Source of the DNA: Deltaproteobacteria bacterium
GTDB lineage: Bacteria; Desulfobacterota; Binatia; HRBIN30; CADEER01
NCBI GenBank assembly: GCA_029262455.1
Contig: JAJCZJ010000088.1
Location: 270,273-334,272 of the forward strand
Reading direction: 5' to 3'
DNA: 64,000 nucleotides
In this document: positions 10,807 through 64,000 of the stretch, piece by piece
Layout of the letters: each line of letters opens with the position of its first letter
How positions within the stretch are numbered: position 1 is the stretch's first letter
Notes under the pieces: model-generated
The model's input: the letters and a program-made list of their open reading frames with translations, nothing else
The model's database searches: none
Told to the model about the DNA's origin: nothing
Position numbers and translations under genes: made by a program

Positions 10807-12332
10807 GCCTTGCGCAGGCTCTCGTCTGCTTCGGCCTGGCGGCCCGAGAGCTGGAGCGCCGTCGCGCGCAGGACCAGTGCCTCAGGATCCCAACGATCTC
10901 GCTCGAGAACTTCACTGGTGAAATCGAACGCTTGTTCGGGGCTCTCGGGTAGCACTGCGGCCGCCGCGACGAGGGAGTCCTCTCGACTTCGCGACGCAGG
11001 CAGACCCTCCCGCACGTGGAGATCGCCGGCTTTCAGCCGTGCCTTCCACCGGAGGCGCCGCGCAAGGTCGAAACGATGCAGCGACTCCGCCTCACGGGCG
11101 GCGTCCTCGTGCCGCCCGAGATCGTTTGCGAGAGCCATGCGCAAGGTTTTCGCCTCGGCGATCGCTCCGCGTGTGATGAGCTCTTCGAGCAGGTCATAGG
11201 CTTCGCGAAGGCGTCCCTCGCGCACTTGCAGCGCCACCCGGCGACGAATCGGCTCTGGAGCGTCGCGGTCTACGTCCGCCCACTCGGCCAGCAGGCGCTC
11301 GTAGTCGGCGCCCGGCCCCTCCCGTTCCGCGATGTCGACGCGCAACGCGACCACGGCGGGGTCACGCTCGTGGTGTCGCGACAGCCCGTCGAGAAGCGAC
11401 CGTGCAACTCGGGGCTCGCCGACGTCTAGATACGCGGCGGCGCGCGCCACGGGGAAACGGCTGTCCTCCGACCACTGCGTTGCCAACGACTCCCACGCCT
11501 GCAGCGCGCCCGCTGCGTCCCCCGACGCGGACAGTGCGGCAGCGACTCCGGCGCGAAGGGCGAGCCAGTCTCCCCCCGTCACGACACCCGCTTCGAAGGC
11601 CAGGCGCGCGCCTCCCGGGTCGTTGGCGGCGAGCCGGCGGCGGCCGGCGAGCCATTGCGCTGCGACCATCGTCGGGTCGACTCGCAGCGCAGCAGCCAGC
11701 GGCCCGAGGCGTCCGTAGGTGACGCCGGCCGGAAGCGGCAGGTCGTAGTCAGCGACGGCCGCCCTGCCCAGGAGCAAGCGCGCGTACCGGTCGGCGGACA
11801 CCGGTCGCCGCCACTTCTCGATCATCGCAGGCCCGGCCGGGCGGTGCAGAGTCGCCGCGCACCAGACGAGCGCCTCGGCGACACCTTGGCCAAGCTCCTC
11901 CGCGTCGCCCGACCAAGTCGTCTCAGCGTACGACGCGTCAGGCGGCGAGAGCCGCAGCCGGATCTCCAGTGCGCCGCCGGTCGAGAACGAGGAAACGATC
12001 ACCGCCAGGCCCCAGTGCTCGACCCCGTGGCGCAGCCAGCGGTCCAGACCGGGGGCAGATCGCCCGTTGTTCCACGAAACGACGACGCCGTCGATCTCGA
12101 TCAGCCCCATTTCCATCAAGACGGCCACCAGACCGGCTCTCTCGACGCGCCAACGATGGTCACCGCGGACCTCCGGCCTTTCGACCAGGATCCTGGCGAT
12201 TGGCGGAGGACGACCGGGCTCGAGACCGCCGGCACCGTCCGCGATCGTGCTGGTCTCGCTGCGACAGCCTGTGCCGACGGCGCTTGCCGCCACGGTCATC
12301 AGGATGTAGGCGCGTAGGGTGCGCAAGCTCAT
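10686..12332 (-). CDS. Putative lipoprotein with TPR-like helical repeats
   Basis: N-terminus MSLRTLRAYILMTVAASAVGTGC is a signal peptide with a lipobox-like Cys. The Ala/Leu/Arg-rich body is helical-repeat-like. Confidence 0.5.
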   Translation of the reverse strand: MSLRTLRAYILMTVAASAVGTGCRSETSTIADGAGGLEPGRPPPIARILVERPEVRGDHRWRVERAGLVAVLMEMGLIEIDGVVVSWNNGRSAPGLDRWLRHGVEHWGLAVIVSSFSTGGALEIRLRLSPPDASYAETTWSGDAEELGQGVAEALVWCAATLHRPAGPAMIEKWRRPVSADRYARLLLGRAAVADYDLPLPAGVTYGRLGPLAAALRVDPTMVAAQWLAGRRRLAANDPGGARLAFEAGVVTGGDWLALRAGVAAALSASGDAAGALQAWESLATQWSEDSRFPVARAAAYLDVGEPRVARSLLDGLSRHHERDPAVVALRVDIAEREGPGADYERLLAEWADVDRDAPEPIRRRVALQVREGRLREAYDLLEELITRGAIAEAKTLRMALANDLGRHEDAAREAESLHRFDLARRLRWKARLKAGDLHVREGLPASRSREDSLVAAAAVLPESPEQAFDFTSEVLERDRWDPEALVLRATALQLSGRQAEADESLRKAYFADPALAIGEGSGAWPSEGPSTAAGSTTAGSHEQSSSP

Positions 12333-14643
12333 TGGGTACCTCGCCGTCGTCTTGTCACTAGCCTTCCTTGTCGGCGCTGGCTACGGGCTGCATTGGTTCA
12401 ACCTGCACGTGTGGTCGGAGTTGCCGAGCGACCTGAGCTCGCTGCGCGACTTCCGCCCGCTGTCCAGCTGCCTCGTCTACGCGGCCGACGGTAGCCGCAT
12501 CGACCAATTCTACATCGAGCGCCGTATCTGGGTCCCCATCGACGAGATCCCACCGATCGTCTGGCAGGCCTTCGTCGCAATCGAAGACCGACGCTTCCTC
12601 GATCACAAGGGAATCGACCCCGTTGGCATCATGCGCGCGGCCGTGCGCAATATGCAAAGCGGCAACGTGATGGAAGGCGCCTCGACGATCACCCAGCAGA
12701 TCGTCAAGAACCTCTTGGTCGGCAACGATCGAACGTACCGCCGCAAACTCAAGGAAGCCGTTCTGGCGCTTCGCCTCGAGCGCGAGCTCGACAAGATGAC
12801 GCTGCTCGAGATCTATCTGAATCTGGTCTACCTGGGTGACGGAAACTACGGCGTCGGGGCGGCGGCAGAGGATTACTTCGGCCGGCCGGCACGCGAGCTC
12901 GACCCCGGACAAGCCGCAACTCTCGCCGGTCTGGTGGCGGCGCCGTCGCGACGCTCTCCGCGCAAGCACCCGCGGCGCGCCGCGGCGCATCGGCTCCAGG
13001 TGCTTGCAAGCATGGTCACCGGCGGCTACCTGTCCGCGGCGGCGGCGGCGGGCTACGAGGGTGATCCGGTGTACGCTCCCTTGCAGGCCGCGGAGCCGCG
13101 CACGCGAGCCGCGGCCTACCAGACCGTCGTGCGGCGGGAGATCCGCACGCTGCTCGGCCGGCAGGCGCCGTTTCGTCTCGGACTGCGTGTACACACCGCC
13201 CTCGACCTGGATATTCAAGAAACCGCCGAAGACGCTCTGCGGAAGGCGCTGCAGGCAATCGACGAACGGCAGGGCCGCCGCGGGCGGGTGGCCGTGTTGT
13301 CGCAGTCGGAGGTCGAGGCCTTCCTGCGGCGAGCGCCTGGACTGCCGGCGCCGGCCGGGCATGACGCCCCGCCCGAACCGCAGGCAGGGAGCTGCTTTCC
13401 CGCTGTGCTCGGCCGAGCCGGGCTGGACGAGCTGCGTGCCGCGTCTTGGTCGTATCGGATGCGGGACGATCAGCGCGAGGTTCTCGTGTACGCTGGAGAG
13501 CGCGGCGAAGCTCCCTTGCGGGAGATGGTCCGCGAAGGCGACATTCTGCAGGTATGTCTCGACCAGAACGGCGAGGCAGGGTTGGACACGACGCCGCGCG
13601 CAGAGGGAGCAGTGGTCGTGATCGAGAACCAGACCGGCTACGTCCGCGCGATCGTCGGCGGATATCGTGACCGACTCGAAGGGTTTGTCCGAGCCACACA
13701 GGCACGCCGGCAACCCGGCAGCAGCTTCAAGCCCTACGTCTACGCCACCGCACTGGTGGCAGGGCGCCGGCAGACTTCGCGTGTGCTCGACGGCCCGTTG
13801 TCGCTGCCGGCGGGAAACGGCAAGGTCTGGAGCCCAGGCAACTTCGGCGATCGGTATCTCGGGTGGGTGCGAATGCGCGAGGCGTTGGCAGCCAGCCTCA
13901 ACTCGGTGGCAGTCCGCCTGGCTGTGGAGGTCGGCGTCCCTGCGGTGGTGCAGACGGCTCGGGCGATGGGTGTTCGTTCGCCGCTCGAGAGCAATGCGGC
14001 GCTGGCACTCGGCGCCAGCGAGGTGACCCCGATGGATCAGGCGCTCGGATACGCCACGATTGCTCGTCAGGGAGTCCCCACTGATCCAATTTTCATCCTC
14101 TCGCTGCAGGATGATCGGGGCGGCGTCGTTGCGCAGGCCGGCCAACGGTTACCGAGCGATCTCGGCGGTGCGCGGCTACCCGGCGGCCCTCTGCCACGAG
14201 CCCTGCCTGCAGGAGTGGCCTACGAGCTCGCCGACATGCTGCGCAACGTCGTCGAGTCGGGAACGGGCAGGCGGGCCTTCGATCCGGATGGTGATCGCGC
14301 TGGCAAGACGGGTACGACCAACGGTTTCGCAGACGCATGGTTCGTCGGATTCACCTCGCGCTATACGATCGCAGTCTGGATCGGCACCGACGACCGGGAG
14401 CCGTTGGGCCACGGGGAGACCGGATCGCGCGCCGCTCTCCCGGCCTGGCTGCGAATCGTCGAATCGCTGCCCCACCCTCAAGGCGCACGCTTTGCCGTCC
14501 CCGACGAGGCCGTTATCGTTCGCGTCGGCGAACGCTGGCTCGGCTTTCCTCGCGGCCGCGCCCCGCGCGATAGCCTACCACGGGCGACAGCTTCGGACGC
14601 CCCGCTTCCTCCCTTCCTCCGTCGGTCGGCGCTCAGGCACTGA
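12319..14643 (+). CDS. mrcA: Penicillin-binding protein 1A (bifunctional transglycosylase/transpeptidase)
   Basis: An N-terminal TM anchor, the GT51 motifs AFVAIEDRRFLDHKGIDP and EGASTITQQIVKNL, and a transpeptidase region with GSSFKP. GTG start. Confidence 0.85.
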   Translation: MRKLIGYLAVVLSLAFLVGAGYGLHWFNLHVWSELPSDLSSLRDFRPLSSCLVYAADGSRIDQFYIERRIWVPIDEIPPIVWQAFVAIEDRRFLDHKGIDPVGIMRAAVRNMQSGNVMEGASTITQQIVKNLLVGNDRTYRRKLKEAVLALRLERELDKMTLLEIYLNLVYLGDGNYGVGAAAEDYFGRPARELDPGQAATLAGLVAAPSRRSPRKHPRRAAAHRLQVLASMVTGGYLSAAAAAGYEGDPVYAPLQAAEPRTRAAAYQTVVRREIRTLLGRQAPFRLGLRVHTALDLDIQETAEDALRKALQAIDERQGRRGRVAVLSQSEVEAFLRRAPGLPAPAGHDAPPEPQAGSCFPAVLGRAGLDELRAASWSYRMRDDQREVLVYAGERGEAPLREMVREGDILQVCLDQNGEAGLDTTPRAEGAVVVIENQTGYVRAIVGGYRDRLEGFVRATQARRQPGSSFKPYVYATALVAGRRQTSRVLDGPLSLPAGNGKVWSPGNFGDRYLGWVRMREALAASLNSVAVRLAVEVGVPAVVQTARAMGVRSPLESNAALALGASEVTPMDQALGYATIARQGVPTDPIFILSLQDDRGGVVAQAGQRLPSDLGGARLPGGPLPRALPAGVAYELADMLRNVVESGTGRRAFDPDGDRAGKTGTTNGFADAWFVGFTSRYTIAVWIGTDDREPLGHGETGSRAALPAWLRIVESLPHPQGARFAVPDEAVIVRVGERWLGFPRGRAPRDSLPRATASDAPLPPFLRRSALRH

Positions 14644-19000: not shown

Positions 19001-19411
19001 CTAGTGCAGAGTCTCTTCGTCGTCGGATTGGGTCTCGAACGATGGCGACACCCCGCCGGCTTGATGGTGTACCAGTCGCCAAGCGGCGTCTTCGACGACG
19101 AAAATGTTGGTCGCCACCAGCTTGCCCGAAGGCAGCAGCTCTTCGCAGGTCACGAACGCGGCGTCGCCCAGGATTGCAACCTCCGCATTCCTGCACTGGA
19201 CCGTAGGCGATCCCGGACCGTCAAGAATGCTCCGCCAACTCGCCAAGACACGGTCTCGTCCCCGCAATACAGGCCACCCGGGATGAATGCATGCAACCGG
19301 CGACTGCGCCGCCCACACTTTCTCCAATCCGTCAAAGTCGCACTCGTTGAAAGCGCGATAGAATTCCGCATTGACGGCGAGCACGGCTTCACGTTGCATA
19401 GGTACCGCCAT
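19001..19411 (-). CDS. SnoaL-like / NTF2-like (DUF4440-type) small protein
   Basis: MAVPMQREAVLAVNAEFYRAFNECDFDGLEKVWA...VACIHPGW is a typical NTF2-like fold sequence. Start chosen at an internal ATG. Confidence 0.5.
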   Translation of the reverse strand: MAVPMQREAVLAVNAEFYRAFNECDFDGLEKVWAAQSPVACIHPGWPVLRGRDRVLASWRSILDGPGSPTVQCRNAEVAILGDAAFVTCEELLPSGKLVATNIFVVEDAAWRLVHHQAGGVSPSFETQSDDEETLH

Positions 19412-19448
19412 CTCGCACTGTGGACTCCGGGTCAAGGGAACAACTGAA

Positions 19449-22430
19449 ATGCCTTTATCGCCGCAATCACTTGAGAAACGCCATCGACTGAGGGGCTTCG
19501 CCGAGACTCTCGAGCCTTCCCTCACCCGAAGTCCGGACACCGAACAAGCCTTGCGAGGAATCGCCGACCTGCTGGCCGGCACCAATGCAAAGGATTTGTC
19601 CGCTGCGTGGAAGGCCAACCCCGCTCAAGTCTGCCGCATCCTCGCGACAGTTTGCGGCGGCGCACCGTTCTTGATTAGCCACCTTCTGCATCATCCCGAA
19701 TGGTTGGCGCGCCTGGCGGCCGAAGACCTCGGGAACGAGCGCAGCAGCGAAGCCTACCGGGCACGCTTGGCGCAGTTGACCGACGGTGTCGACAAACGTG
19801 CCGACATCACGCGTATTCTGCGCGAGTTTAAATACTACGAGTTGACGCGTATCACGGTGCGCGATCTTTCGAGCGACCTGGTGCCGCTCGACTCCAGCGG
19901 CGAGGTCTTGGCGGAGCTTTCCCACCTCGCCGATGCGCTGCTAGCAAGAGCCTACGAGTACTCCCAAGCCCGCTTCGATGCGGACGACGATGGCTCTCAC
20001 TTTGCCGTCATCGGCATGGGCAAGCTCGGGTCCGAGGAACTGAACTACTCCTCGGACGTCGACCTAGTCTACGTCTGCGGCGACGAAAGCAATGACGACC
20101 CCGGAGCAACTCCGAACCTGCAGAAAGTCGCGCGATCACTCGGCGAGATCGTGCGACGAAAGACCGAGAACGGCTTCCTCTATCGAATCGATCTCGACTT
20201 GCGTCCAGAAGGGGCCTCCGGGCCCCTGGTTGTCAGTGCATCCGCGCTCGCAGACTACTACGAACGCTGGGCCGAGACCTGGGAAAAGGCCGCCTTGATG
20301 AAAGCGCGACCCGTCGCAGGAGACTTGGCGTTCGGGTGGAGAGTGATCCGTTCGATGGATCCGATTATCTACCGCTCGTCGATGGACCTCGAAGGGGTCG
20401 AAGCGATCCGCGCCATGAAGGACAAGATCGAACGAGCAAAAGGTCGTGAAGGGAAGACCTTCAACGTGAAGATCGGCCGCGGCGGGATCCGCGACATCGA
20501 ATTCATATCGCAAGCACTGCAGATGATGTACGGCGGCAAGCAGCCGCAGGTTCGGCAACGATCCACCCAGGCAGCGTTGCAAGCGTTGGTCGAAACCGGG
20601 GCCCTCGACCAGGACGCTGGCGACGAATTACTCGAAGCCTATCGCTTCCTGCGTCGCATCGAGAATCGCATCCAGATGGAGAACGAGCGGCAGCTCTACC
20701 ATCTACCGACCAGCACGGCCGGCCGGCAACGCCTAGCCCGAGCGATGGCCTCTTTCGAAGACGGCAATCCGGACAAGTTTGACGAAGACCTCACGGCACA
20801 CAGAGATCGGGTCAGAAGAATCTTCAGCAGACTATTCGACAAGGACGAAGGCGAGCGAATTCTCGACCTGTTCCAGGATAGTGCCCCGTCCCTGCTCGCG
20901 AATCCCGCGACCCGCAAACTCGCCGAAGATCTCGCCAAGCAGATGGCGCACCAAATCGAGGCCAGTTCGTCACCCGACCGGGCAATGAACAACCTCGACG
21001 AATTCATACGGGGGGTTGGCCAGCGCAAGTTCTTCTACGAGCTCTTGCTCGACCGGCCCGAGCTCGTCCCCCGGCTGGTCCGATTGTTCGCAGCGTCAGA
21101 ATACTTGTCCAGCTACGTAGCAACCCATCCGCGCCTGATCGAACCGCTGTTCGACGACCCTGACGTTCTTCTGCATTCGCGCGCCGAGCTCGAAGCCAGC
21201 TACGTCGAGATCCGGCAAACTCTCGCCGAGGAACAGTCGAGCAGTGACCCTGAGCTGAGCCTCGATGCCGTGCGGCTGTTTCACAACCGTGAGCTGGTCA
21301 ACGTCGGGCTTCTCGACCTCGACGAGCGTATCGATCGGCGTTCGGCGGAACAATCGCTCACTGAAATTGCGGAGGTCTGTCTCGACCAGGGCGTCGCCAT
21401 CGCGGAGTTGGAGGTTGTCCGAAGGACCAAGAAGAAACCGACTTGGCTGAAGAAGGGCGAGTTTCTCGTAGTGGCGATGGGCAAAATGGCGAGCCACGAG
21501 CTGACGTATGGGAGCGATCTGGACGTCATTTTTCTGTATGACGTGCCCGCGGCCGACGAAGACATGGAACTCGCGGCGCAGAGCGGCTTTGCCGGTCTGG
21601 CCCAGAAAGTGATCTGGGCGCTGCAAACGCGAACCCACGAAGGAACTTGCTACGAGATCGACGCTCGCCTGCGCCCATCCGGAAACCAAGGCCTGCTCGT
21701 TTCCCACATCGCCACCTTCAAGAAGTACCACGCCGGCAAGTCCGAGCTATGGGAACGGCAGGCGTTGCTTCGATCCCGCCCCGTCGCCGGCGCGAAGCGA
21801 TTGGCCGAGGCCTTCCAAGAGATCCGCGCAGAGATCTTGTCCCGTCCGATCTCGACCGACGCACAAACCGAAGTGCATCGAATCCGCATGCGCATGGAAG
21901 CAGAGCTCGCATACGAGTCTGGCGGGCATCGCGACTTCAAGACCGGGCGAGGCGGACTCCTCGACATCGAAACCATCGTGCAGTGCCAGCAGCTGGCAAA
22001 CGGCCACCAGCACCCGTACCTCTTCGAGGTGCATCCCATCGCCGACCACATCCAGTACTTGCTCCAACATCAGCTCATTAGCGAATCCGATTCGGAAACG
22101 CTGCTCGGCGGCTGGGAGTTCTTACAGCGATTGTCGAGCCGCCTCCGAATCATCGAGAATCGCTCCATTTCCGACCTCGACGCCGAGCGCGGGGATCTTG
22201 ACGAGGTCGCGCGCAGGCTGGGCTACCGGTCGACCGGACGCGCCAGCGGAGCGCGCCGTGGCCTTCTCGACGAGTACCATCAACGCACAGGAGACATCCG
22301 AGCCGTCTATGAGGGATACCTCGGAAGAACCGAACCGGTCGTCCACGAAGTCTCGGCCGGCAAAGCCGAGATTCCAAAGCGGCAACGGACCGTGCGCGGC
22401 GCAGCAAGGCGACGACTCGCGAAGAGGTGA
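19449..22430 (+). CDS. glnE: Bifunctional glutamine synthetase adenylyltransferase/adenylyl-removing enzyme
   Basis: ~990 aa with two nucleotidyltransferase domains (GMGKLGSEELNYSSDVDLVYV and AMGKMASHELTYGSDLDVIFLY) plus GlnE-type helical linkers. Confidence 0.9.
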   Translation: MPLSPQSLEKRHRLRGFAETLEPSLTRSPDTEQALRGIADLLAGTNAKDLSAAWKANPAQVCRILATVCGGAPFLISHLLHHPEWLARLAAEDLGNERSSEAYRARLAQLTDGVDKRADITRILREFKYYELTRITVRDLSSDLVPLDSSGEVLAELSHLADALLARAYEYSQARFDADDDGSHFAVIGMGKLGSEELNYSSDVDLVYVCGDESNDDPGATPNLQKVARSLGEIVRRKTENGFLYRIDLDLRPEGASGPLVVSASALADYYERWAETWEKAALMKARPVAGDLAFGWRVIRSMDPIIYRSSMDLEGVEAIRAMKDKIERAKGREGKTFNVKIGRGGIRDIEFISQALQMMYGGKQPQVRQRSTQAALQALVETGALDQDAGDELLEAYRFLRRIENRIQMENERQLYHLPTSTAGRQRLARAMASFEDGNPDKFDEDLTAHRDRVRRIFSRLFDKDEGERILDLFQDSAPSLLANPATRKLAEDLAKQMAHQIEASSSPDRAMNNLDEFIRGVGQRKFFYELLLDRPELVPRLVRLFAASEYLSSYVATHPRLIEPLFDDPDVLLHSRAELEASYVEIRQTLAEEQSSSDPELSLDAVRLFHNRELVNVGLLDLDERIDRRSAEQSLTEIAEVCLDQGVAIAELEVVRRTKKKPTWLKKGEFLVVAMGKMASHELTYGSDLDVIFLYDVPAADEDMELAAQSGFAGLAQKVIWALQTRTHEGTCYEIDARLRPSGNQGLLVSHIATFKKYHAGKSELWERQALLRSRPVAGAKRLAEAFQEIRAEILSRPISTDAQTEVHRIRMRMEAELAYESGGHRDFKTGRGGLLDIETIVQCQQLANGHQHPYLFEVHPIADHIQYLLQHQLISESDSETLLGGWEFLQRLSSRLRIIENRSISDLDAERGDLDEVARRLGYRSTGRASGARRGLLDEYHQRTGDIRAVYEGYLGRTEPVVHEVSAGKAEIPKRQRTVRGAARRRLAKR

Positions 22431-28764: not shown

Positions 28765-31700
28765 ATGTCCAGTTCCGTACGCCTTGCAGGTGTCGCATCG
28801 GCGATGTTGCTGATTTTCAGCGCGTCGTACGCAGCAGCGATTCCGCTCACTTCTGACGAAGCAAAATGTCAGAAAACCGTTGCCACCCAAGGCCGCGTCT
28901 TCTTCAAGAAGCGCATCAAAGCCCTACAAAAGTGCAACGACGACATCATCAAGGGCAAGCTTGCCTCCGGCACGGATTGTACACTCGAATCCAAGGCAGC
29001 CAGCAAGATCACCAAGGCCGAGACTAAGTTCAGCGCCAAGGTCGGTGGCAAGTGCACCGATGCTTTGGTCGCAGCACTCGATTTTGGCGGCCAATGCGCC
29101 GGCGCGGCGACAACCGCCACGTTGACCTCGTGCCTTCGGCAAGACCATAGCAGTGCAGCCGACTCGCTGATCGCAACCGTCTACCCGACAACCGCGGTCA
29201 AGCAATGCGCCGGCGGAGCAAACGACGGTCTCGTGTGCACCGGGAACCCCGGATGCCCAGGCGGTACATGCGCCCTCCCGGGTCACGCATGTGACGGTGG
29301 AGACAACGACGGCACCGCTTGCGATATCGACGCAGACTGTACCGGCGGCGGCTCCTGTCTTCAGGGCAAGGACCACGCAAATTGCATCAAGACTGTCGGC
29401 AAGACAGTTGCCAAGCAAGCCAACAAGCGCATGGCCCTCGTACAGAAGTGCAAGAAGTCTGTCGGCAAAGGCAAGCTGCCGATCGGCACCGATTGCGTCG
29501 CCGAGTCGCAAGCGAAGCTCGACAAGCTGATGACCAAATCGATTCAGAAGATTCAGGACAAGTGTCCTACTTCGATCGCTTCGGGTCAGTTGTTCGGCGG
29601 CTCGTGTAAAGGTTCCGACACCACCGACAACGTCGCTTTCTGTGCCCTGTGCGAAACGAATAGCGGAGCCGACGACTTGATCGTCGTCCAGCACGGCTCC
29701 GGATCGAACGGCGGCGCAGCGGGTGCGATTCAGATCACCGACACCGCGGACTGTGTCGACGGCCCACAGAGTCGTTGCCGGATCGGCGACTACCTCCTAT
29801 CGAACGGCAACATTCGCGTCGTCGTACAGGACATCCAACGCCAGTACCTCGCGGGGATCGGCCAGTTTGGCGGTCAAATCATCGACGCCGACTTGGTTCG
29901 CACCGTAGGTGCCGACCGCGACAGTTTCGAAGAGTGGGCCGTTTCGCTCAACATCGAGTCCACCGCTCACTACACAAACCTCACGATTATCAACGATGGC
30001 ACCAACGGCGGTCCGGCGATCCTTCGCGCGACCGGCGTCGACGACCTTCTCGACCTGCTCAACCCGAGCGCAACCATTGCCAGCTTCGGACTTCTCTTGC
30101 CCCCTACGGCCGACGACTTTGATATCCCGGTAACGGTCCAAACGGATTACATCCTCGATCCGGGCTCGAATGCGGTCGAAGTCGAGACCACCGTTCTAAA
30201 CACCAGCGGCGCCTCTATCGACATCTTCTTCGGGGAGTTCATCAACGGCAGTGGCCAAGTCGAGCTCTTCCAATCCGGCTATGGCTTCGGCGAGCCACTG
30301 ATCGCGTCACCGTGCGGCGGCCGATCCAAATGCAACCAGCTCGCCAACATGATCGGTTACAGCGGAGAGCTGGAGTCTGCCGGAGTCTCCTACGCGTATG
30401 CTTCGGATACCCCCAACTCGTCATCGTTTTCGACCTCCGGAGTGTCCGTCGAACTCCTCGGTGTCGACGCGCTCGGTGCGCTGATTGGCGCCGCAACAGC
30501 CAACTTCACGCTCGAAGCAAACGGTACTACCGGCGATAGCCTCACCTTCTCCCGCCTATTCATCGTCGGGGACGGGACCATTTCCTCCCTGATTGACACC
30601 AGGATCGCGACTCAATGCCTGCCGTTCGGAACAGTCGACGGCACCGTGGATCTCGGAGGCAGCGTCATAGCCGACGCCGACGTGGTGGTTCTTGGTACCC
30701 CCGCCAACGGCCCCGGTGGCGGCCTGCACAACAATCTAACCCGCAACGTCGTGACACATACCCGCACCGACGCTGCGGGAGCCTTCTCACTGACACTGCC
30801 ACCGGGCAGCTACACCCTGGCAGCAAACTTTCAAGGCGCCCTGTACGAAGGTGCTGGAACATCGCCGACCGAGCACAGCATCACGGTGGTCGCGGCGACC
30901 ACCGTAACCCAGAACGTAAGCCTCCCGACGACGGGCGCGTTGCGCGTCATCGTGGACGACGAAAATACCGATCCGATCGCCGCCAGAATCGCCGTGGTCG
31001 GATTCGATCCGTCCCCGGATCCCAAGAACAATCAGAATCTTCTGGGACTGATCTTCAACACAACCGGCGTGTTTGGCGACCAAAACGAAGACGGCTTCCC
31101 GTTTGGCGTCGCACACAATCGCTACGCCGATGCGTCGGGCGACACCGGAGAGTTTCCAATGGAGCCGGGATCGTACCGCGTTTATGTCTCCCACGGCACC
31201 GAGTACTCCATCGACTTCGAAGACGTAACGATTACGGCCGGGGCCACGACGACGGTCAACGCTACGGTCGAACGGGTCATCGACTCCACCGGGTTCGTTT
31301 CCGGTGATTTCCACGTCCACTCGATCGATAGCCCAGACGCCGCTATCAGCCGCACCGATCGAGTCATCGCCATGCTCGGAGAAGGTGTCGATTTCTTTGC
31401 CACCACCGACCACGGCTACCGTGCCGACTTCTCTTCCGCCATCACCAGCCTCGGGGTTGGTGGACTGGTCTCCACCGCCATCGGACAGGAGATCACAACC
31501 TTTGACTACGGGCACTTCAACGCGTGGCCGCTCGACCTGAACACGTCGCTGGCCAACGGCGGTTTCGTGGACCACGGCGGCGCCGCTCCGGATGGATTGG
31601 ACTACCCGTCCGCCGGCTTCTACAGCGAAACGCCGGCAACCATCGTAGCGCTCGCCCACGCCGACTACACAGGCACCAACACCGTCCAGATCAACCACAT

Positions 31701-32781
31701 CCACAGTCACTTCGGTGTGGATGGTGGATCCGGGCTCGGCATCGACACCGGACTGACACCGCCAGCATCTGTCGTACCGGCTGCGGCCCGTCGGCTGAAT
31801 CCGGCCGTCACCAACTACTTCACCGACACCTTCGACGCTCTCGAAGTGTGGATCGGCGAAAGCTTAGGCCAAATCGACGATAACTTCCTCGGGCAGAACG
31901 CTGGTGACTGGATGAACATGATCAACCAGGGAATCATTTCGACGGGTGTCGCCAACTCGGACACGCACCGTCGCTTCATCACACAGTCGGGTTTTCCACG
32001 CAGCATGGTCGCCTCGCTCGAGGACGATCCCGGGCTGCTTTCGCAAGACGATGTCTCGTCGAGCGTCAACGCCGGGCGTGTGATTGGGACCAACGGGCCG
32101 CTGCCGCGGATTACGGTCCACTCTGCCGCAACCGGCGAAAGTGGTGGCCTCGATCTCGGACGCTGTACCGGAGTCGTGGCGTGCACCAACACGACGACAT
32201 GCCCGCCGTGCACGGACACCAGTCAATGCGCAATCGGCGAGACATGTACGACGCTTCCGACAACGATTACCTCCACTTCCGGGACCGATGTCGACATCAC
32301 CGTCGACGTGCAAAGTCCCGAATGGGCGCCGTTCGACAGGATCGAGTTCTACATCAACACCACAACTACCAAGACCACCACGATGGACGTCGAAACCGGG
32401 TCTGGAGAAGTTGATGTCAATCGCTATTCACTGACACCGGATCTCGTACACACCGCCGGAGTCGACTTCGCCGTCTCGACGGTCGCCGTGCCCGGTACGG
32501 GCTCCTCGCGACTCGTCGCAACGACCAGCACGACTCTGACTGGCCTGACCACCGACTCATGGGTAAGCGTCATGGTCGTCGGCACTGACGGTGTTTCCAA
32601 TCCGCTGTTTCCGGTCGTGCCAAACAGCCTCACGCAAGCCGGCAACACCACTCTGGCGAACCTGATCGACGGCAACCTTGGTGAGTCGGGTATGCCTGCG
32701 TTGGCGTTCACGAACCCGATCTTCATCGATACGGATGGCTCGGCCGGCTGGGACGCGCCGGGTGTACAGATTGCACCGTAG
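28765..32781 (+). CDS. Large secreted multidomain protein: duplicated Cys/Lys-rich N-terminal modules, a Cys-rich linker, a carboxypeptidase-regulatory-like domain and a PHP-type metallophosphoesterase domain
   Basis: Signal peptide MSSSVRLAGVASAMLLIFSASYAAA. Two ~75-aa modules with an identical Cys spacing (CQKTV...KC...GTDC...KC...GGQC and CIKTV...KC...GTDC...KC...GGSC). TDAAGAFSLTLPPGSYTL (CarboxypepD_reg-like). DFHVHSIDSPDAAISRTDRVIAMLGEGVDFFATTDHGY (PHP domain HxH...D...TDH). Confidence 0.8.
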   Translation: MSSSVRLAGVASAMLLIFSASYAAAIPLTSDEAKCQKTVATQGRVFFKKRIKALQKCNDDIIKGKLASGTDCTLESKAASKITKAETKFSAKVGGKCTDALVAALDFGGQCAGAATTATLTSCLRQDHSSAADSLIATVYPTTAVKQCAGGANDGLVCTGNPGCPGGTCALPGHACDGGDNDGTACDIDADCTGGGSCLQGKDHANCIKTVGKTVAKQANKRMALVQKCKKSVGKGKLPIGTDCVAESQAKLDKLMTKSIQKIQDKCPTSIASGQLFGGSCKGSDTTDNVAFCALCETNSGADDLIVVQHGSGSNGGAAGAIQITDTADCVDGPQSRCRIGDYLLSNGNIRVVVQDIQRQYLAGIGQFGGQIIDADLVRTVGADRDSFEEWAVSLNIESTAHYTNLTIINDGTNGGPAILRATGVDDLLDLLNPSATIASFGLLLPPTADDFDIPVTVQTDYILDPGSNAVEVETTVLNTSGASIDIFFGEFINGSGQVELFQSGYGFGEPLIASPCGGRSKCNQLANMIGYSGELESAGVSYAYASDTPNSSSFSTSGVSVELLGVDALGALIGAATANFTLEANGTTGDSLTFSRLFIVGDGTISSLIDTRIATQCLPFGTVDGTVDLGGSVIADADVVVLGTPANGPGGGLHNNLTRNVVTHTRTDAAGAFSLTLPPGSYTLAANFQGALYEGAGTSPTEHSITVVAATTVTQNVSLPTTGALRVIVDDENTDPIAARIAVVGFDPSPDPKNNQNLLGLIFNTTGVFGDQNEDGFPFGVAHNRYADASGDTGEFPMEPGSYRVYVSHGTEYSIDFEDVTITAGATTTVNATVERVIDSTGFVSGDFHVHSIDSPDAAISRTDRVIAMLGEGVDFFATTDHGYRADFSSAITSLGVGGLVSTAIGQEITTFDYGHFNAWPLDLNTSLANGGFVDHGGAAPDGLDYPSAGFYSETPATIVALAHADYTGTNTVQINHIHSHFGVDGGSGLGIDTGLTPPASVVPAAARRLNPAVTNYFTDTFDALEVWIGESLGQIDDNFLGQNAGDWMNMINQGIISTGVANSDTHRRFITQSGFPRSMVASLEDDPGLLSQDDVSSSVNAGRVIGTNGPLPRITVHSAATGESGGLDLGRCTGVVACTNTTTCPPCTDTSQCAIGETCTTLPTTITSTSGTDVDITVDVQSPEWAPFDRIEFYINTTTTKTTTMDVETGSGEVDVNRYSLTPDLVHTAGVDFAVSTVAVPGTGSSRLVATTSTTLTGLTTDSWVSVMVVGTDGVSNPLFPVVPNSLTQAGNTTLANLIDGNLGESGMPALAFTNPIFIDTDGSAGWDAPGVQIAP

Positions 32782-58850: not shown

Positions 58851-59098
58851 CAGGTCCGTCTCCTTACATCCTGTTCCGCACCTCCTCCCATAGAGCGCCG
58901 CCGCCAGCAACCGCAACGCGCAAAGCGCGGCGCCACAGCATCGCTGGTGCGAAAAAGAACCGGCAAACGTCCAGTTTGCGACGCCGCATAACAGGTAGAA
59001 ACCCCGGTCGCTGGCGAAAATCTACCGTGCACTACGGTCCAGCCAGGTGGCATGGCCGCTGCATATCCAAAGAGATAGTTCAGCAGTGGAATGAATCC

Positions 59099-60331
59099 GT
59101 GAGAGTCCTACTTTCCGTCGCAATACTCCTCGCTTGCGCACCAGCTGTGTCAGCACGCATGTTGTTCGTAGCCGGCCAACCCGTACCGGTATCGTCGCGG
59201 CCACGATACCTCGCGACCGACGATATCGATCAGGACGGCCTTGCCGACGCCATTGTCGTCAGCACGCGCGACACTCTCTCGATCCTCTACGGCTCCGAGA
59301 CCTCGCAGACGCTCTTCAGCGCGCCGCAGGTCGTCACCTTCGGCCGCCGTTTGCGCAGACCCAACACCGGTGACGTCAACGCCGACGGAATTACCGACAT
59401 CGTCGTGCCCGACGAAAGCAGCGGGGCCGTGTGGGTCCTGCTCGGCGAGGGAACTCGCGGCTTCGCCGCACCGCGGCTTATTCCTGTGGGAAGCAAGATG
59501 AGGCCATACGCAGTCGCGATCGGAGACATCGATGGCATCGGCGGCAACGATATCGTCGTCGGCGAACGGCGCAGCGGGCAAATCCACGTGCGACTCAACA
59601 CCGCCGCTTTCTCCTTTCGCAACGGGCCGGTCATGAACACCCGGGGCGGACTCGAACAGATCGAATGTGAGGATCTAAACGGCGACGGTCTGCCTGAACT
59701 GATCAGCGTCTCAGCCGGGCGCGTCGGACGCGTTTCAGTATTCCCCGCCACGGCACAGGCCAATGGTTCCCTCACCTACGGCGACCCGATGTCATTCAAC
59801 ACCGATTCGACCAAAGCGAGCTTCGCCACCGGCGACTTCGACAACAATGGTACGCGCGATCTAGCCGTCCTTTCCAGAACCCGCGGCGGCAAGAACAGCA
59901 TCCTCGGCATCAGATCGACGAACCCGGATCACAGTGTCGGCGCGTCTTTGTCCCTCGAAGCACCCTGTCCCGATCAGGGCCGCCGCCGCTTCTGCAGAGC
60001 CCGAGGCATCGCGGCGGCCGACTTCGATAGAGACGGCATCATCGACCTGGCGATCGGCCTGCGCAATCGCGCCGTCCTCGGAGCCTTGGGAACGAGACGT
60101 TCCGGCGTCGTCGCAATCATGCGCGGCCGCGGCGACACCTTCGTCGCCGCCGACAGCGCCCCGTGGCTGGAAAAAGCACCCGCCGAGATCGACTCAGGCG
60201 ATTTCGACGGCGACGGCCGCCCCGACATCGTCGCCATCAGCAAGTCGAGCAGCCTCCTACAAGCAATGCGAAACATCTCCTCACCCGGCCCAACCGTGCG
60301 CAGAAAGCGCCGCGTCGAGCCTCGCAGGTAA
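59099..60331 (+). CDS. Secreted FG-GAP/VCBS-repeat beta-propeller protein
   Basis: A GTG start gives the signal peptide MRVLLSVAILLACAPAVSA. Repeated DxDxDGxxD Ca-binding loops (TDDIDQDGLADAIVV, GDVNADGITDIVV, EDLNGDGLPELISV, GDFDGDGRPDIVAI). Confidence 0.6.
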   Translation: MRVLLSVAILLACAPAVSARMLFVAGQPVPVSSRPRYLATDDIDQDGLADAIVVSTRDTLSILYGSETSQTLFSAPQVVTFGRRLRRPNTGDVNADGITDIVVPDESSGAVWVLLGEGTRGFAAPRLIPVGSKMRPYAVAIGDIDGIGGNDIVVGERRSGQIHVRLNTAAFSFRNGPVMNTRGGLEQIECEDLNGDGLPELISVSAGRVGRVSVFPATAQANGSLTYGDPMSFNTDSTKASFATGDFDNNGTRDLAVLSRTRGGKNSILGIRSTNPDHSVGASLSLEAPCPDQGRRRFCRARGIAAADFDRDGIIDLAIGLRNRAVLGALGTRRSGVVAIMRGRGDTFVAADSAPWLEKAPAEIDSGDFDGDGRPDIVAISKSSSLLQAMRNISSPGPTVRRKRRVEPRR

Positions 60332-60364
60332 GATCCTATTATCGCGAGCTTTGAGGATGGCGAG

Positions 60365-60652
60365 TTACAGCTTCGGCGATCGCTGGGCACTGTGCCAGAC
60401 GCGGACGATCTCAAGCGGGTCGGAGTCCGGCAAAAAGATTATTTGGTACGAGTAAACCGGGTGAAACCGGTACTTCGGATCAATCTTCGGCCGCGTGTAG
60501 CCAATACGGGGTTTTGCGGCCAAGAGACGAAATGCGTCGTGGAACTCTTGCTCGACACGGAGCGCCGAATCGAGGTTGTCCTCGGCGATGTACGCGAAGA
60601 TCTCAGCGACATCGACCTCAGCTCGCGGGGCGAGCCGATAGGTCTTGCTCAT
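60365..60652 (-). CDS. parE: ParE/RelE-family type II toxin
   Basis: 95 aa. YQIIFLPDSDPLEIVRVWHSAQ is the typical ParE C-terminus. ATGA overlap with the upstream antitoxin gene. Confidence 0.8.
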   Translation of the reverse strand: MSKTYRLAPRAEVDVAEIFAYIAEDNLDSALRVEQEFHDAFRLLAAKPRIGYTRPKIDPKYRFHPVYSYQIIFLPDSDPLEIVRVWHSAQRSPKL

Positions 60653-60894
60653 TGCCGCTGACGGAAAGACTCCGCTAGCTCCGCCATGTGCTGGCGAAAC
60701 TGCTCTTCGGTGACGTACTCGCCCCGGTCGAGCTCGGCCTGACCTTCAGCGATCGCTTCGCGAATCGCATCGGTTTCGGCCTCTTGCTGCTCCCGTTGGT
60801 CGAGCAACTCGGTGAGGTATTCTTCGGCCGACGCGTAGCGGCCAGCCTTGACTGGCGCGGCAAGTCGGTCCTCGAGTTTCTTGTCCAGCTTCAT
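60649..60894 (-). CDS. parD: ParD-family type II antitoxin
   Basis: MKLDKKLEDRLAAPVKAGRYASAEEYLTELLDQRE...AIAEGQAELDRGEYVT is the ParD (PF03693-like) pattern. Confidence 0.7.
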   Translation of the reverse strand: MKLDKKLEDRLAAPVKAGRYASAEEYLTELLDQREQQEAETDAIREAIAEGQAELDRGEYVTEEQFRQHMAELAESFRQRQ

Positions 60895-61001
60895 GCCGGT
60901 AGAGTCTACAACAGGTTCGGAAACGTGAAAAGCGTCGTATCCCAATTGAGTTCAACAGGGGAGGCCCTTGATCACACAAGCCCGGGCTGGGAAAAGCTTC
61001 C

Positions 61002-61139
61002 GGCGATTTCGACGGCGACGGCCGCCCCGACATCGTCGCCATCAGCAAATCGAGGAACCTCTTACAGCAATGCGAAACATCTCCTCACCAGGGCTCACGG
61101 TGCGCAGAAAGCGCCGCGTCGAGTCGCGACGGTAAGATC
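61002..61139 (+). pseudogene. Duplicated, frameshifted copy of the last 138 bp of the FG-GAP gene (copy B; ~90% identical to 60197-60334)
   Basis: Direct alignment: GGCGATTTCGACGGCGACGGCCGCCCCGACATCGTCGCCATCAGCAA...GCGCCGCGTCGAG...GGTAAGATC. Copy B has a 1-nt deletion that breaks the frame. Confidence 0.6.
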
Positions 61140-61194: not shown

Positions 61195-61343
61195 CAACAC
61201 GAAGACACAAGGACACGAAGACACGAAGATTGCGCGACTTGTCATGGCCGCACGGACCCTTTTCGAAACGGAGTCCATGGAGTGGCTAGCTCCTGGTCCG
61301 AAAAACCCTAACAACCCCTTTGTGTCTTCGTGTCTTTGTGTTG
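61195..61343. repeat. AT-richer inverted-repeat element: arms built from GAAGACAC/AAGGACAC octamers (61195-61228 versus 61314-61343) enclose an ~85-nt structured spacer. A T-run follows on the minus strand
   Basis: Seen directly in the sequence. It could be a MITE-like element, a structured sRNA or a minus-strand terminator. Confidence 0.4.
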
Positions 61344-61458: not shown

Positions 61459-61527
61459 GCGAAACATTTCGTCTCCCGTCCCAACGGTATGCAGAATGCG
61501 CCGCGTCGAGCTTCGTGGGTAAGATCC
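61459..61527 (+). repeat. Third, more degenerate copy (copy C) of the FG-GAP gene 3'-end repeat
   Basis: GCGAAACAT...GCGCCGCGTCGAGCTTCGTGGGTAAGATCC aligns with 60266-60336 at ~80% identity. It shares the 3' flank ATCTGCGCCC with copy B. Confidence 0.45.
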
Positions 61528-61986: not shown

Positions 61987-63990
61987 ATGGCAAAAAGCAA
62001 AGCCTATCAGCGAGCGAAACAGAAAATCGAAGAGGCACGAGGCTCAGCGGCCTGGCGACTCGATCTCGCAGGGTTGGGTCTCACAGCTCTCCCTGACTCC
62101 CTGGCTCAGCTCACCAACTTGCAGAGCCTCTATCTCAGCTCCAACCAACTCACCGCTCTCCCTGACTCCCTGGCTCAGCTCACCAACTTGCAGAGCCTCT
62201 ATCTCAGATCCAACCAACTCACCGCTCTCCCTGACTCCCTGGCTCAGCTCACCAACTTGCAGATCCTCGATCTCAGATCCAACCAACTCACCGCTCTCCC
62301 TGACTCCCTCGCTCAGCTCACCAACTTGCGGATCCTCTTCCTCAGTTCCAACCAACTCACCGAGTTACCGGCGTCGCTGCGGCACTTGGCCGACAACGCC
62401 GTATTGCGCGAGCTCTACCTTCACGATAACCCGGCCCTCGAACTGCCCAGCGAGTTGCTGGGGCCAGAGCACGCACGGGACACTTACAATCCACCGAAGC
62501 CGCCAAAGGAGATCCTGGATTACTACTTCTCAACCCGCGGTGACGCCGGGCAGGCGCTGCGGGAACTTCGGCTGATCGTCGTCGGCCGCCCCAAGGTTGG
62601 GAAGACGACTCTGATCAAGCGACTGCGCGGCCATCCGATGGACCCGCACGAGGCCGAGACCCACGGCATCGACATTCTACCGATGGATCTGAAGTGTCCG
62701 GACGGCCCCCTCCGAGCGCGGGTCTGGGACTTCGGTGGACAGCACGTGTTGCATGCCATGCACGAGTTCTTTCTGCGCAACCGCTGCCTCTACCTGTTGG
62801 TGGTCGAACAACGCGCCAACGACGTCGAACGGGAGCTGACGTACTGGCTCCAACTGATCCGCAGCTACGCTGGCGATGCGCCGGTGGTCGTCGCGCTGAA
62901 CCAGAGCAAGGGTATCCCACGCTCCTTGGCGAGAGCAGCGCTGGAGCGAGACTACGGGCCGATTCTCGCCTGGGTTCCCACCGAGTGCGCGTCGGAAGAC
63001 GAAGTCCCCGGTGCCGACGCCACCATCGAGGCGCTGCGCGCTGCACTCACCACAACCGCAGCCGCGATGCCCGAGCCGAAGAAGCTTTTTCCGAAGAAGT
63101 GGTTGGCGATCAAGCAATGGCTAGAAGCCATGCAAGAGCCATACCTGGACTACGCCACCTACGCCGAGCATTGCGCAGAGTTGAACGAGCGCGATCCGCA
63201 GCAGCAAGCCGCCCTCGCAGCCGCCATGGATGAACTCGGCGTGGCACTCAACTACGCCCGCGATCCCCGCCTGCGCGACACCACCGTGTTGCGGCCGAAC
63301 TGGCTGGCCAACGGCATCTACGCGTTGCTGCGCGCCAACATTCTGGCGCCCGAACCGCTGGCGCCTGAGGGCGTGCTGACAGAGTCAATGGTCGGGACAG
63401 TCCTGAAGGTTGCGGGCCAGGCGAAGGTACTCGATGCGGCCGAGTACCCGCCCGAGAAGTGGTCGTTCTTGCTGCGGCTGATGAACCTCTTCCAGCTGAG
63501 CTTTCCACTCGACGAAGAGGGCGAGCGCTATCTAGTGCCGGCCTTGCTACCCGCCGATGAGCCGGTGGACAGCGGCGAACCGGGCGGCCCGAACCAAGTG
63601 AAGCTGCGCTACGAATTCGACGTCGTCCCAGGCCCGCTGATCGGGCGCTTGCTCGTACGCCTGTTCGCGATCATCGACGGCCGCAAGGTTTGGCACCGCG
63701 GTGCGCGGCTGCGCTACGGCGATGCAAAAGCGCGCGCGTGGGCCGATCTGGAAGAGAAGTACGTCTTCGTCAGCGTTGCCGGCGACGCGAACGATGCCGC
63801 GGAGCTGCTCGAGATGATTCGCGAAACGCTCAAAGAGTTGTTCCGTGAATACGAACGACTGCGCGTCGTCGAGCAGTGGTGGCACGGCGACAACTGGGTG
63901 CCGCGCGGCACCCTGGAGCAGATCGGCGTGCTAGCCCGCGAAGTGGTCAGCGAAGGCAAGCAACCGGGCGGACAGGAGGTGCGCGATTAA
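61987..63990 (+). CDS. ROCO-family GTPase: LRR - Roc (Ras-of-complex G domain) - COR
   Basis: At least five LRRs (LTALPDSLAQLTNLQSLYLSSNQ). The P-loop RLIVVGRPKVGKTTLIKRL and switch II WDFGGQ. A long COR-like C-terminal region. Complete ORF ending in TAA at 63990. Confidence 0.85.
   Translation: MAKSKAYQRAKQKIEEARGSAAWRLDLAGLGLTALPDSLAQLTNLQSLYLSSNQLTALPDSLAQLTNLQSLYLRSNQLTALPDSLAQLTNLQILDLRSNQLTALPDSLAQLTNLRILFLSSNQLTELPASLRHLADNAVLRELYLHDNPALELPSELLGPEHARDTYNPPKPPKEILDYYFSTRGDAGQALRELRLIVVGRPKVGKTTLIKRLRGHPMDPHEAETHGIDILPMDLKCPDGPLRARVWDFGGQHVLHAMHEFFLRNRCLYLLVVEQRANDVERELTYWLQLIRSYAGDAPVVVALNQSKGIPRSLARAALERDYGPILAWVPTECASEDEVPGADATIEALRAALTTTAAAMPEPKKLFPKKWLAIKQWLEAMQEPYLDYATYAEHCAELNERDPQQQAALAAAMDELGVALNYARDPRLRDTTVLRPNWLANGIYALLRANILAPEPLAPEGVLTESMVGTVLKVAGQAKVLDAAEYPPEKWSFLLRLMNLFQLSFPLDEEGERYLVPALLPADEPVDSGEPGGPNQVKLRYEFDVVPGPLIGRLLVRLFAIIDGRKVWHRGARLRYGDAKARAWADLEEKYVFVSVAGDANDAAELLEMIRETLKELFREYERLRVVEQWWHGDNWVPRGTLEQIGVLAREVVSEGKQPGGQEVRD
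62080..62355 (+). repeat. Four near-identical 69-bp tandem DNA repeats encoding the LRR units of the ROCO gene
   Basis: Seen directly in the sequence: CTCACCGCTCTCCCTGACTCCCTGGCTCAGCTCACCAACTTGCAGAGCCTCTATCTCAG(C/A)TCCAACCAA is repeated with 1-3 substitutions per unit. Confidence 0.8.
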
Positions 63991-64000
63991 ACCTCGGAAC

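Follow-up and report, generated by a model that had tools for sequence, protein, structure and literature searches.

What a bacterial Roco protein does for its host is the question raised by the last gene of the 64,000-nt stretch of DNA analysed here (the window; contig JAJCZJ010000088.1 of a Deltaproteobacteria bacterium). The Roc-COR switch of LRRK2 is modelled structurally mainly on bacterial Roco proteins, in which leucine-rich repeats (LRRs) can precede a Roc G domain and a COR domain and whose physiological role has not been demonstrated. The original prediction for this locus, made from the sequence alone, regarded the open reading frame (ORF) as a signal-activated LRR-GTPase effector or conflict system belonging to a family with no established function. 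Our analysis supports the conflict or signalling part of that description and reassigns the roles, with the Roco ORF as sensor and switch and a TIR domain gene as the effector. We propose, at a probability of roughly 0.6, that the Roco ORF is the sensor/switch subunit of a two-gene Roco-TIR module that acts as an immune NADase system. The statement that such proteins have no established function holds experimentally, but a role against invaders was already predicted for them by Kaur et al. 2021 (PMC8195603). The window ends 10 nt past the Roco stop codon, and the partner gene was therefore studied in relatives.

The Roco ORF is a genuine Roco-family protein and a bacterial relative of LRRK2. 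The complete 667-residue LRR-Roc-COR frame that had been predicted is found exactly where it was placed (Table 1), and LRR_8, Roc, COR-A and COR-B all score above their Pfam cut-offs, so that neither Roc nor COR falls short of its threshold. LRR_8 reaches 86.1 bits against a gathering cut-off of 27, and COR-A (PF16095, 95.1 bits against 35.3) and COR-B (PF25497, 50.3 bits against 27) both lie directly C-terminal to Roc. In a sequence search the best full-length solved relatives are structures of the Chlorobium tepidum Roco protein, CtRoco (6hlu, 8r4b, 3dpu), while the RocCOR structure of Methanosarcina barkeri Roco2, MbRoco2 (4wnr), matches the Roc-COR part of the ORF with an E value of 1.7e-54. 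An AlphaFold2 model based on 35 homologues has a predicted local distance difference test score (pLDDT) of 85.2, falling below 50 only at residues 655-667, and a predicted template modelling score (pTM) of 0.71. Its top PDB fold matches are CtRoco (6hlu), RocCOR (3dpu, TMt 0.74), MbRoco2 (4wnr, TMt 0.77), LRRK1 and LRRK2, and the COR of 3dpt matches it at TMt 0.73-0.75. Pfam finds no ARM, ANK, kinase or WD40 domain in the ORF and no nucleoside triphosphatase (NTPase) of the STAND type (signal transduction ATPases with numerous domains; NACHT or NB-ARC); the NTPase is Ras-like. The top NCBIfam matches are XopAC, XopL, XopAE and SlrP, and on this account a secreted virulence effector with LRRs, like XopAC, XopL or SlrP, was considered. 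The matches cover the LRRs alone (residues 9-155), the remainder of the protein is Roc-COR, and the scores lie far under the cut-offs (93.3 against 450 bits, 68 against 500 and 45 against 1113); we rejected this candidate as highly improbable. No sigma-70-like promoter for the Roco gene was found on the + strand between 60300 and 62100.

The proposal of a two-gene module is carried by what follows the Roco gene in relatives. The loci examined, 58 from species-representative genomes and 52 from metagenomes, were scored with a profile derived from the partner TIRs themselves. A hidden Markov model made from three TIR sequences had missed the fused TIRs of L037 and L043, which Pfam finds, and the rebuilt profile was used for the tally, which counts non-redundant loci with an assessable Roco 3' side. 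In all six Pfam-annotated contexts of close homologues (L001, L003, L005, L117, L118 and L119; 70-74% identity) a TIR_2 gene of 163-174 aa comes next after the Roco gene, and the two overlap by 4 or 11 nt, from the ATG of the TIR gene to the Roco stop; such an overlap suggests translational coupling. Among loci grouped by their G4 motif, the 3' end of the Roco is accompanied by a TIR in 12 of 12 members of the NQS[KR]G clade (one of them truncated), to which the window's ORF belongs, and in 51 of 52 members of the NK[SN]xG clade, where a separate reading of the junction showed a TIR in the lone miss too. The figure for distant relatives is 21 of 26, with the TIR fused in the same ORF in 18, and a fused TIR_2 domain at the COR C-terminus is confirmed by Pfam in L032, L037, L043 and P0113. 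Across 112 non-redundant loci, no third conserved gene was found at up to 2.5 kb from the module; the largest neighbour cluster comprised four loci. Because the TIR linkage is near-universal and no third gene is conserved, the conserved unit is Roco plus TIR, whether fused or split. The downstream partner gene that the original prediction had looked for beyond the window is thus a TIR domain gene, present in essentially every relative, and these relatives are spread patchily over Planctomycetota, Verrucomicrobiota, Acidobacteriota and other phyla.

Several loci depart from this simple arrangement. In the closest species-representative genome, a Planctomycetota metagenome-assembled genome with 70% identity (L007:12094-12177, the same locus as L070), the TIR is cut after 23 conserved residues and unrelated AT-rich DNA lies beyond. 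At L078, L083, L091, L096 and L041 the TIR frame is divided between two ORFs, which may reflect frameshifts, assembly errors or recurrent effector inactivation. L005 has a second TIR gene of 107 aa directly upstream of the Roco gene (L005:9668-9991), giving TIR genes on both sides, and this small TIR has strong PADLOC matches to the PDC-S66 and ThsB-like models. P0026, a Roco of the window's clade, has a TIR fragment fused at its N-terminus. In L003 the TIR gene is directly followed by 4-5 copies of a repeat of ~174 nt (L003:12782-14156), 89-95% identical to one another, and every copy contains a GC-rich hairpin (CCCTCTCCCGCTCGGGAGAGGG).

The TIR partner is predicted to adopt a TIR fold with a glutamate at the catalytic position and to act as an NADase. 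Its invariant residues include F11, S13, Y14 and H16 (beta-A), W40, D42, G48 and E83, and E83 aligns with the EVE motif of TIR-SAVED (7qqk), whose catalytic residue we take to be E84. The top PDB matches of a model of the family (pLDDT 90.8, pTM 0.87) are nearly all TIRs, among them SPARTA TIR-APAZ, flax L6, RPS4, RPP1, TIR-SAVED, SARM1 and AbTir. In PADLOC the relatives' TIR partners come nearest to the ThsB-like (E 1e-10 to 1e-12) and SAVED-TIR effector models, a similarity at the level of the domain only. The ThsB-like models among these best matches, with EcThsB and plant signalling TIRs among the fold matches, would suit a Thoeris-like system, in which the Roco-activated TIR makes a messenger of the cyclic ADP-ribose type and a separate effector executes, with no depletion of NAD+. 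Such a system finds no counterpart in the gene neighbourhoods: the 112 loci have no conserved neighbour that could be an adjacent effector of the ThsA type, and the six annotated contexts hold no SIR2, SLOG, Macro or other ThsA-type domain. LRR-Roc-COR-TIR proteins moreover exist as single genes, and we regard a Thoeris-like division of labour as quite unlikely.

Within the window itself, the putative effector gene shows as a Shine-Dalgarno sequence and five TIR-like codons. The last 27 bases read AGGAGG TGCGCG ATT AAA CCT CGG AAC, with a Shine-Dalgarno spacing of 6 nt, and relatives' junctions (L001, L005, L065-L071) have the same Shine-Dalgarno sequence followed by ATG AAA GC(T/C) A(A/G)x; the peptide IKPRN encoded in the window is homologous to the relatives' TIR starts MKPRT and MKARN. 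Compared with L068 (gcgcgATGAAAGCTAG), a single G to T change at 63988 makes an early TAA that shortens the Roco by two codons (GAT TAA against GAT GAA AGC TAG) and at the same time turns the ATG of the TIR gene into ATT. No alternative in-frame TIR start was found between the stop at 63932-63934 and the end of the window. A profile search with the TIRs of the NQSK clade retrieved P0329, a TIR_2 protein of 155 aa encoded on a 623,648-bp NCBI contig, and the GlnE of the window (19371-22430) is 100% identical to P0121, which comes from an NCBI contig of equal length. The closest named relatives of this GlnE belong to metagenome-assembled genomes of Candidatus Binatia, Candidatus Kryptonia and Deltaproteobacteria, at 59% identity or less. 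P0329 begins at about family position 20 (MLFRKLIESLLRW...), 19 residues late and without the beta-A motif FVSYAH, and a start of this kind is the expected outcome of gene calling if the native start is ATT. Its 155 codons are uninterrupted, and every invariant residue in the covered part is kept, including E83. Since no other Roco from the contig of P0329 appears among the best 120 Roco matches, P0329 most likely belongs to the Roco ORF of the window.

Through the change of ATG to ATT, the TIR effector is probably weakly translated or was recently silenced in this genome. The module could then be a recently inactivated remnant, an orphan Roco without output, a reading that is compatible with the role proposed for the family. 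ATT stands here where the relatives' junctions that were read have ATG, GTG or TTG, the frame offers no other start, P0329 sets in late, and a TIR has been truncated in L007/L070. Set against this, P0329 has remained uninterrupted with its covered invariants intact, the Shine-Dalgarno sequence is preserved at its spacing, and the ATT overlaps the Roco stop (ATTAA), so that initiation at AUU or reinitiation is possible; a single-base sequencing or assembly error at 63988 is possible as well. We consider a remnant conceivable and somewhat unlikely.

In the mechanism that we propose for the Roco-TIR module, the LRRs would recognise a trigger, most plausibly an invader protein, and binding of the trigger would shift the nucleotide or oligomeric state of Roc-COR, on the precedent of CtRoco, which on binding GTP changes its conformation greatly and becomes monomeric (PMC11052575). 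The TIR would be held at the disordered C-terminal tail of the Roco, where the fusion linker of relatives lies, and the shift in the Roco would release TIR subunits or assemble them into an active oligomer. This oligomer would hydrolyse NAD+ and lead to growth arrest or abortive infection. In the present genome the effector would be made weakly, through an AUU start or termination-reinitiation, unless it has recently been silenced.

The proposed sensor is variable in both copy number and sequence. Where four to five LRRs had been predicted, we count five canonical repeats and one capping unit. The DNA that encodes them forms a tandem repeat at 62080-62362 with a period of 69, 4.1 copies and a 95% match, and the 69-nt units at 62116-62322 are near-identical, units 2-4 differing by 1-4 of 69 nt. 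All three non-synonymous differences among units 2-4, small numbers though these are, fall at repeat positions 4, 6 and 8. They correspond to x positions of LxxLxLxx, on the concave face of the standard LRR fold. Among the 37 clade members listed, LRR motif counts range from 0 to 8. Such variation in count and sequence fits the rapidly evolving LRRs that Kaur et al. 2021 (PMC8195603) describe in these proteins.

The nucleotide-binding site combines conserved and unusual motifs. G1 (GRPKVGKT), the switch I threonine of G2 (T225) and G3 (DFGGQ) are invariant across the alignment of homologues. At G4, a residue-for-residue alignment sets NQSK against the NKID of CtRoco and MbRoco2, both the lysine and the guanine-specifying aspartate being replaced; GKT, DFGGQ and the non-canonical LNQSK of the original prediction are all confirmed. 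The canonical G4 motif [NT]KxD, which the ORF lacks, is typical of the superfamily rather than a defining feature of Roco proteins. About 35 of the closest listed homologues (66-78% identity) have NQS[KR]G at this position, and the next tier (~50-57% identity) has NK[SN]xG. Because NQS[KR]G is conserved across the clade, NQSK does not represent decay.

A second change accompanies the first at G5, where the ORF has T-E-C (T332, E333 and C334, all invariant in the homologue alignment) for the I-S-C of canonical Rocos. Canonical Rocos (CtRoco, MbRoco2 and P0076) pair NKxD at G4 with (I/T)-S-C at G5, the TIR-fused clade pairs NK[QIH][KR] with T-D-C, and both split-TIR clades, including the ORF of the window, have T-E-C. 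Across Roco clades, loss of the G4 aspartate (NKxK/R, NKSx or NQSK) thus correlates with an acidic residue in place of the G5 serine; L040 has NKID plus TDC in one protein. In Ras, Ser145 of G5 hydrogen-bonds Asp119 of G4. The alignments suggest that G5 may have taken over the base-recognising carboxylate from G4, in which case guanine might still be recognised. We put forward, tentatively and with considerable doubt, that this rebuilt pocket, with a carboxylate at G5 and the G4 lysine lost, could change the nucleotide specificity or the kinetics of a switch by which a separate TIR NADase is licensed.

The LRR-Roc-COR-TIR class was already predicted in 2021, and the peculiarities at the level of the clade are the split, coupled TIR and the rebuilt G4/G5. 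Kaur, Iyer, Burroughs and Aravind (2021, eLife; PMC8195603) predicted AP-GTPase conflict systems computationally, with Npun_F6039 as an example, and describe LRR-AP-GTPase-COR proteins whose C-terminal effector domain comes in at least 24 alternatives, one of them TIR. The variable N-terminal LRRs, the Roc-COR core and the TIR as effector type are shared with those systems, and the distant relatives L031-L060 have exactly their fused LRR-Roc-COR-TIR architecture. In contrast to those fused proteins, the TIR at about 64 related loci, and putatively here, is a separate overlapping gene; the conflict-type effector is seen in relatives, and the window shows a Shine-Dalgarno sequence with five TIR-like codons. 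The sampled part of the table of Kaur et al. gives effector-less entries followed by unannotated genes, and lists no split Roco and TIR operon.

The module can be compared with several proteins and systems of known architecture. CtRoco (6hlu, 3dpu, 8r4b) and MbRoco2 (4wnr) have the same LRR-Roc-COR order, fold and G1-G3 motifs, a likeness that is the basis for expecting a nucleotide-driven dimer/monomer switch in the Roco of the window. At 21-34% identity they differ from it in having NKID at G4 and SCK at G5 where the window has NQSK and TEC, and their solved constructs have no reported TIR domain. Human LRRK2, LRRK1 and DAPK1 likewise have LRRs followed by a Roc-COR tandem and an output domain under the control of the G domain, but their output is a fused kinase, whereas here it is a TIR encoded in trans. 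Plant TIR-NB-LRR proteins and bacterial TIR-STAND proteins (TIR-NLR or Avs-like) resemble the module in linking an LRR sensor through an NTP switch to a TIR that oligomerisation activates (predicted in the present case). The switch of the module differs from theirs, being a Ras-superfamily GTPase with COR, and the domain order is reversed, with the LRRs N-terminal and the TIR C-terminal or in trans. Because this switch is a Ras-like GTPase and not a STAND ATPase, the likeness to NLRs is one of analogy, not homology. The nearest sequence and structure matches of the TIR partner are in SPARTA (short prokaryotic Argonaute with TIR-APAZ) and TIR-SAVED, whose sensors assemble TIRs into an active NADase; those sensors are an Argonaute with a guide RNA or a SAVED domain that binds cyclic oligonucleotides, not an LRR-GTPase.

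The module is part of a small variable segment of repeat-bracketed cassettes and has an accessory, mobile character. The rest of the window is ordinary chromosome, with genes for a CusB-like protein, alpha-amylase, a class A penicillin-binding protein (PBP), GlnE, acetate kinase, WS/DGAT, an acyl-CoA ligase and an FG-GAP protein, and its variable part starts at the 3' end of the FG-GAP gene (58976-60331). This 3' end is copy 1 (142 nt) of a direct repeat, and copy 3 matches its last 68 nt. Copies 1 and 2 precisely bracket a ParE/ParD pair, whose genes overlap by 4 nt (60649-60652) and whose antitoxin is probably an 81-aa form, the length called for an antitoxin in L120; copies 2 and 3 bracket a 320-nt segment free of ORFs, and the Roco gene begins 460 nt after copy 3. 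The toxin-antitoxin (TA) module and repeat scars noted earlier upstream of the Roco gene are therefore real, with ParDE above the Pfam cut-offs and the repeat present in three copies. The ORF-less segment contains a 24-nt inverted repeat (61205-61228 / 61318-61341; 92% complementary, 89 nt apart) that is rich in GACACGAAG motifs and may be left over from a small mobile element or a deleted cassette.

Relatives' loci show the same character. Flanking genes differ in every annotated locus, with no synteny between loci. In L001, L005 and L118 the segment with the module is enclosed by imperfect direct repeats of 83, 74 and 40 nt, respectively (86-93% identical). The bracketed segments of these three loci hold no integrase, and that of L001 also contains a Phd-family antitoxin and a restriction-enzyme fragment. 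The idea of an integration hotspot has support in the repeat bracketing and the differing flanks; adjacency to ParDE is in itself no evidence. ParDE was rejected as a functional partner, as a search of 119 relatives' loci placed a ParE homologue near a Roco at just 2 distinct sites, and it is taken to be an incidental neighbour because it is this rare and the spacer has no counterpart elsewhere. The upstream spacer and repeat were likewise rejected as a conserved part of the module, blastn matching them to no relative's locus and finding the repeat three times, all in the window; ORFs of the 1-kb spacer, searched as possible gene remnants, have no Pfam family above cut-off. The window holds no tRNA, tmRNA or Rfam family, and a tRNA-linked island finds no support. 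An integron-like attC reading of the repeats was set aside, as part of the repeat is FG-GAP coding sequence and there is no integrase in sight.

Table 1. Positions of the Roco gene, its motifs, the junction with the TIR gene and nearby elements, in window coordinates unless a relative's locus is named.
Feature	Coordinates	Strand	Basis
Roco gene (LRR-Roc-COR-A-COR-B), 667 aa, ATG start	61987..63990	+	ORF, Pfam, PDB sequence matches, model and fold search
LRR array, five 23-residue LRRs and capping unit, aa 21-158	62047..62460	+	motif and tandem-repeat analysis
Roc G domain, aa 195-306	62569..62904	+	PF08477, 77.4 bits against cut-off 27
G1 GRPKVGKT, aa 200-207	62584-62607	+
G3 DFGGQ, aa 248-252	62728-62742	+
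Non-canonical G4 N-Q-S-K (aa 305-308) for N-K-x-D	62899..62910	+	alignment to NKID of 4wnr and 3dpu
G5 region T-E-C (canonical Roco I-S-C)	62980..62988	+	T332, E333, C334 invariant in homologue alignment
COR-A (aa 369-521) and COR-B (aa 536-630)	63091..63876	+	Pfam; 3dpu/3dpt fold matches
Roco/TIR junction: AGGAGG at 63974-63979, then ATT AAA CCT CGG AAC (I-K-P-R-N) at 63986-64000	63974..64000	+	sequence against relatives' junctions
Direct repeat, three copies	60194-60335, 60999-61139 (89%), 61459-61526 (84%)	+	repeat search, blastn
ParE toxin	60365..60652	-	PF05016, 53.2 bits against 23
ParD antitoxin	60649..60945; probably 81-aa form from 60894	-	PF03693, 25.7 bits against 21
Module-bracketing repeats in relatives	L001:8227-8309/12714-12796; L005:8349-8422/14196-14269; L118:7840-7879/11312-11351

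This setting also bears on whether the module serves immunity at all. It might instead be an endogenous switch in stress, development or programmed cell death, through which a cellular ligand sensed by the LRRs would act on NAD+ metabolism, and Kaur et al. (PMC8195603) tie such systems to social or multicellular bacteria. Three further observations suit this alternative and weigh against an immune role: relatives' neighbourhoods consist mostly of housekeeping genes, with occasional TA or restriction fragments; no PADLOC 2.0 model matches the Roco protein; and no relatives were found on IMG/VR viral contigs, so that a prophage-borne module finds no support. The proposed immune module is further weakened by a literature search, in whose papers no experiment shows phage defence or NADase activity for a Roco-TIR pair, and by the G4 motif without its lysine and aspartate, which makes GTP specificity, and even nucleotide switching, putative. 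The truncated TIR of L007/L070 means that the effector can be lost, the presumed adjacency of P0329 to the Roco ORF draws on the matching contig size and the five terminal codons, and with its ATT start the effector may go unexpressed in this genome. The survey of neighbourhoods did not show classical defence-island enrichment, nor did it show any conserved housekeeping synteny. The lack of synteny, the repeat-bracketed insertion, the patchy occurrence among phyla, the variation in LRR copies and the occasional decay of TIRs nevertheless fit an accessory, quickly evolving conflict gene better than a core regulator, and we judge a non-immune role unlikely.

Elsewhere in the window, G+C content is 0.68-0.70 at 10001-14000 against ~0.61 in the remainder. 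An ORF of 548 aa at 10686-12332 on the - strand, without a Pfam match, abuts the class A PBP gene (12319-14643), and a 1338-aa ORF at 28765-32781 has CarboxypepD_reg as its sole recognised domain.

In summary, since the class was predicted in 2021 and the copy described here is possibly attenuated, the value of our findings lies in the pattern at the level of the family and not in a feature specific to the window. The near-exceptionless coupling to a TIR turns the function of bacterial Roco proteins into a two-gene question, to be asked in terms of NAD+ loss, toxicity and phage protection, and the correlated change of G4 and G5 provides a specific hypothesis on nucleotide recognition that can be tested by mutation. 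If our proposal is correct, the module would be a GTPase-switched, LRR-guided TIR immune system, a convergent counterpart of plant TIR-NLRs. If the rebuilt pocket indeed makes a switch that licenses the TIR, the pair would reveal the first physiological role of prokaryotic Roco proteins, and cleavage of NAD+ would then offer a simple enzymatic read-out of Roc-COR control in trans, with relevance to the regulation of LRRK2.

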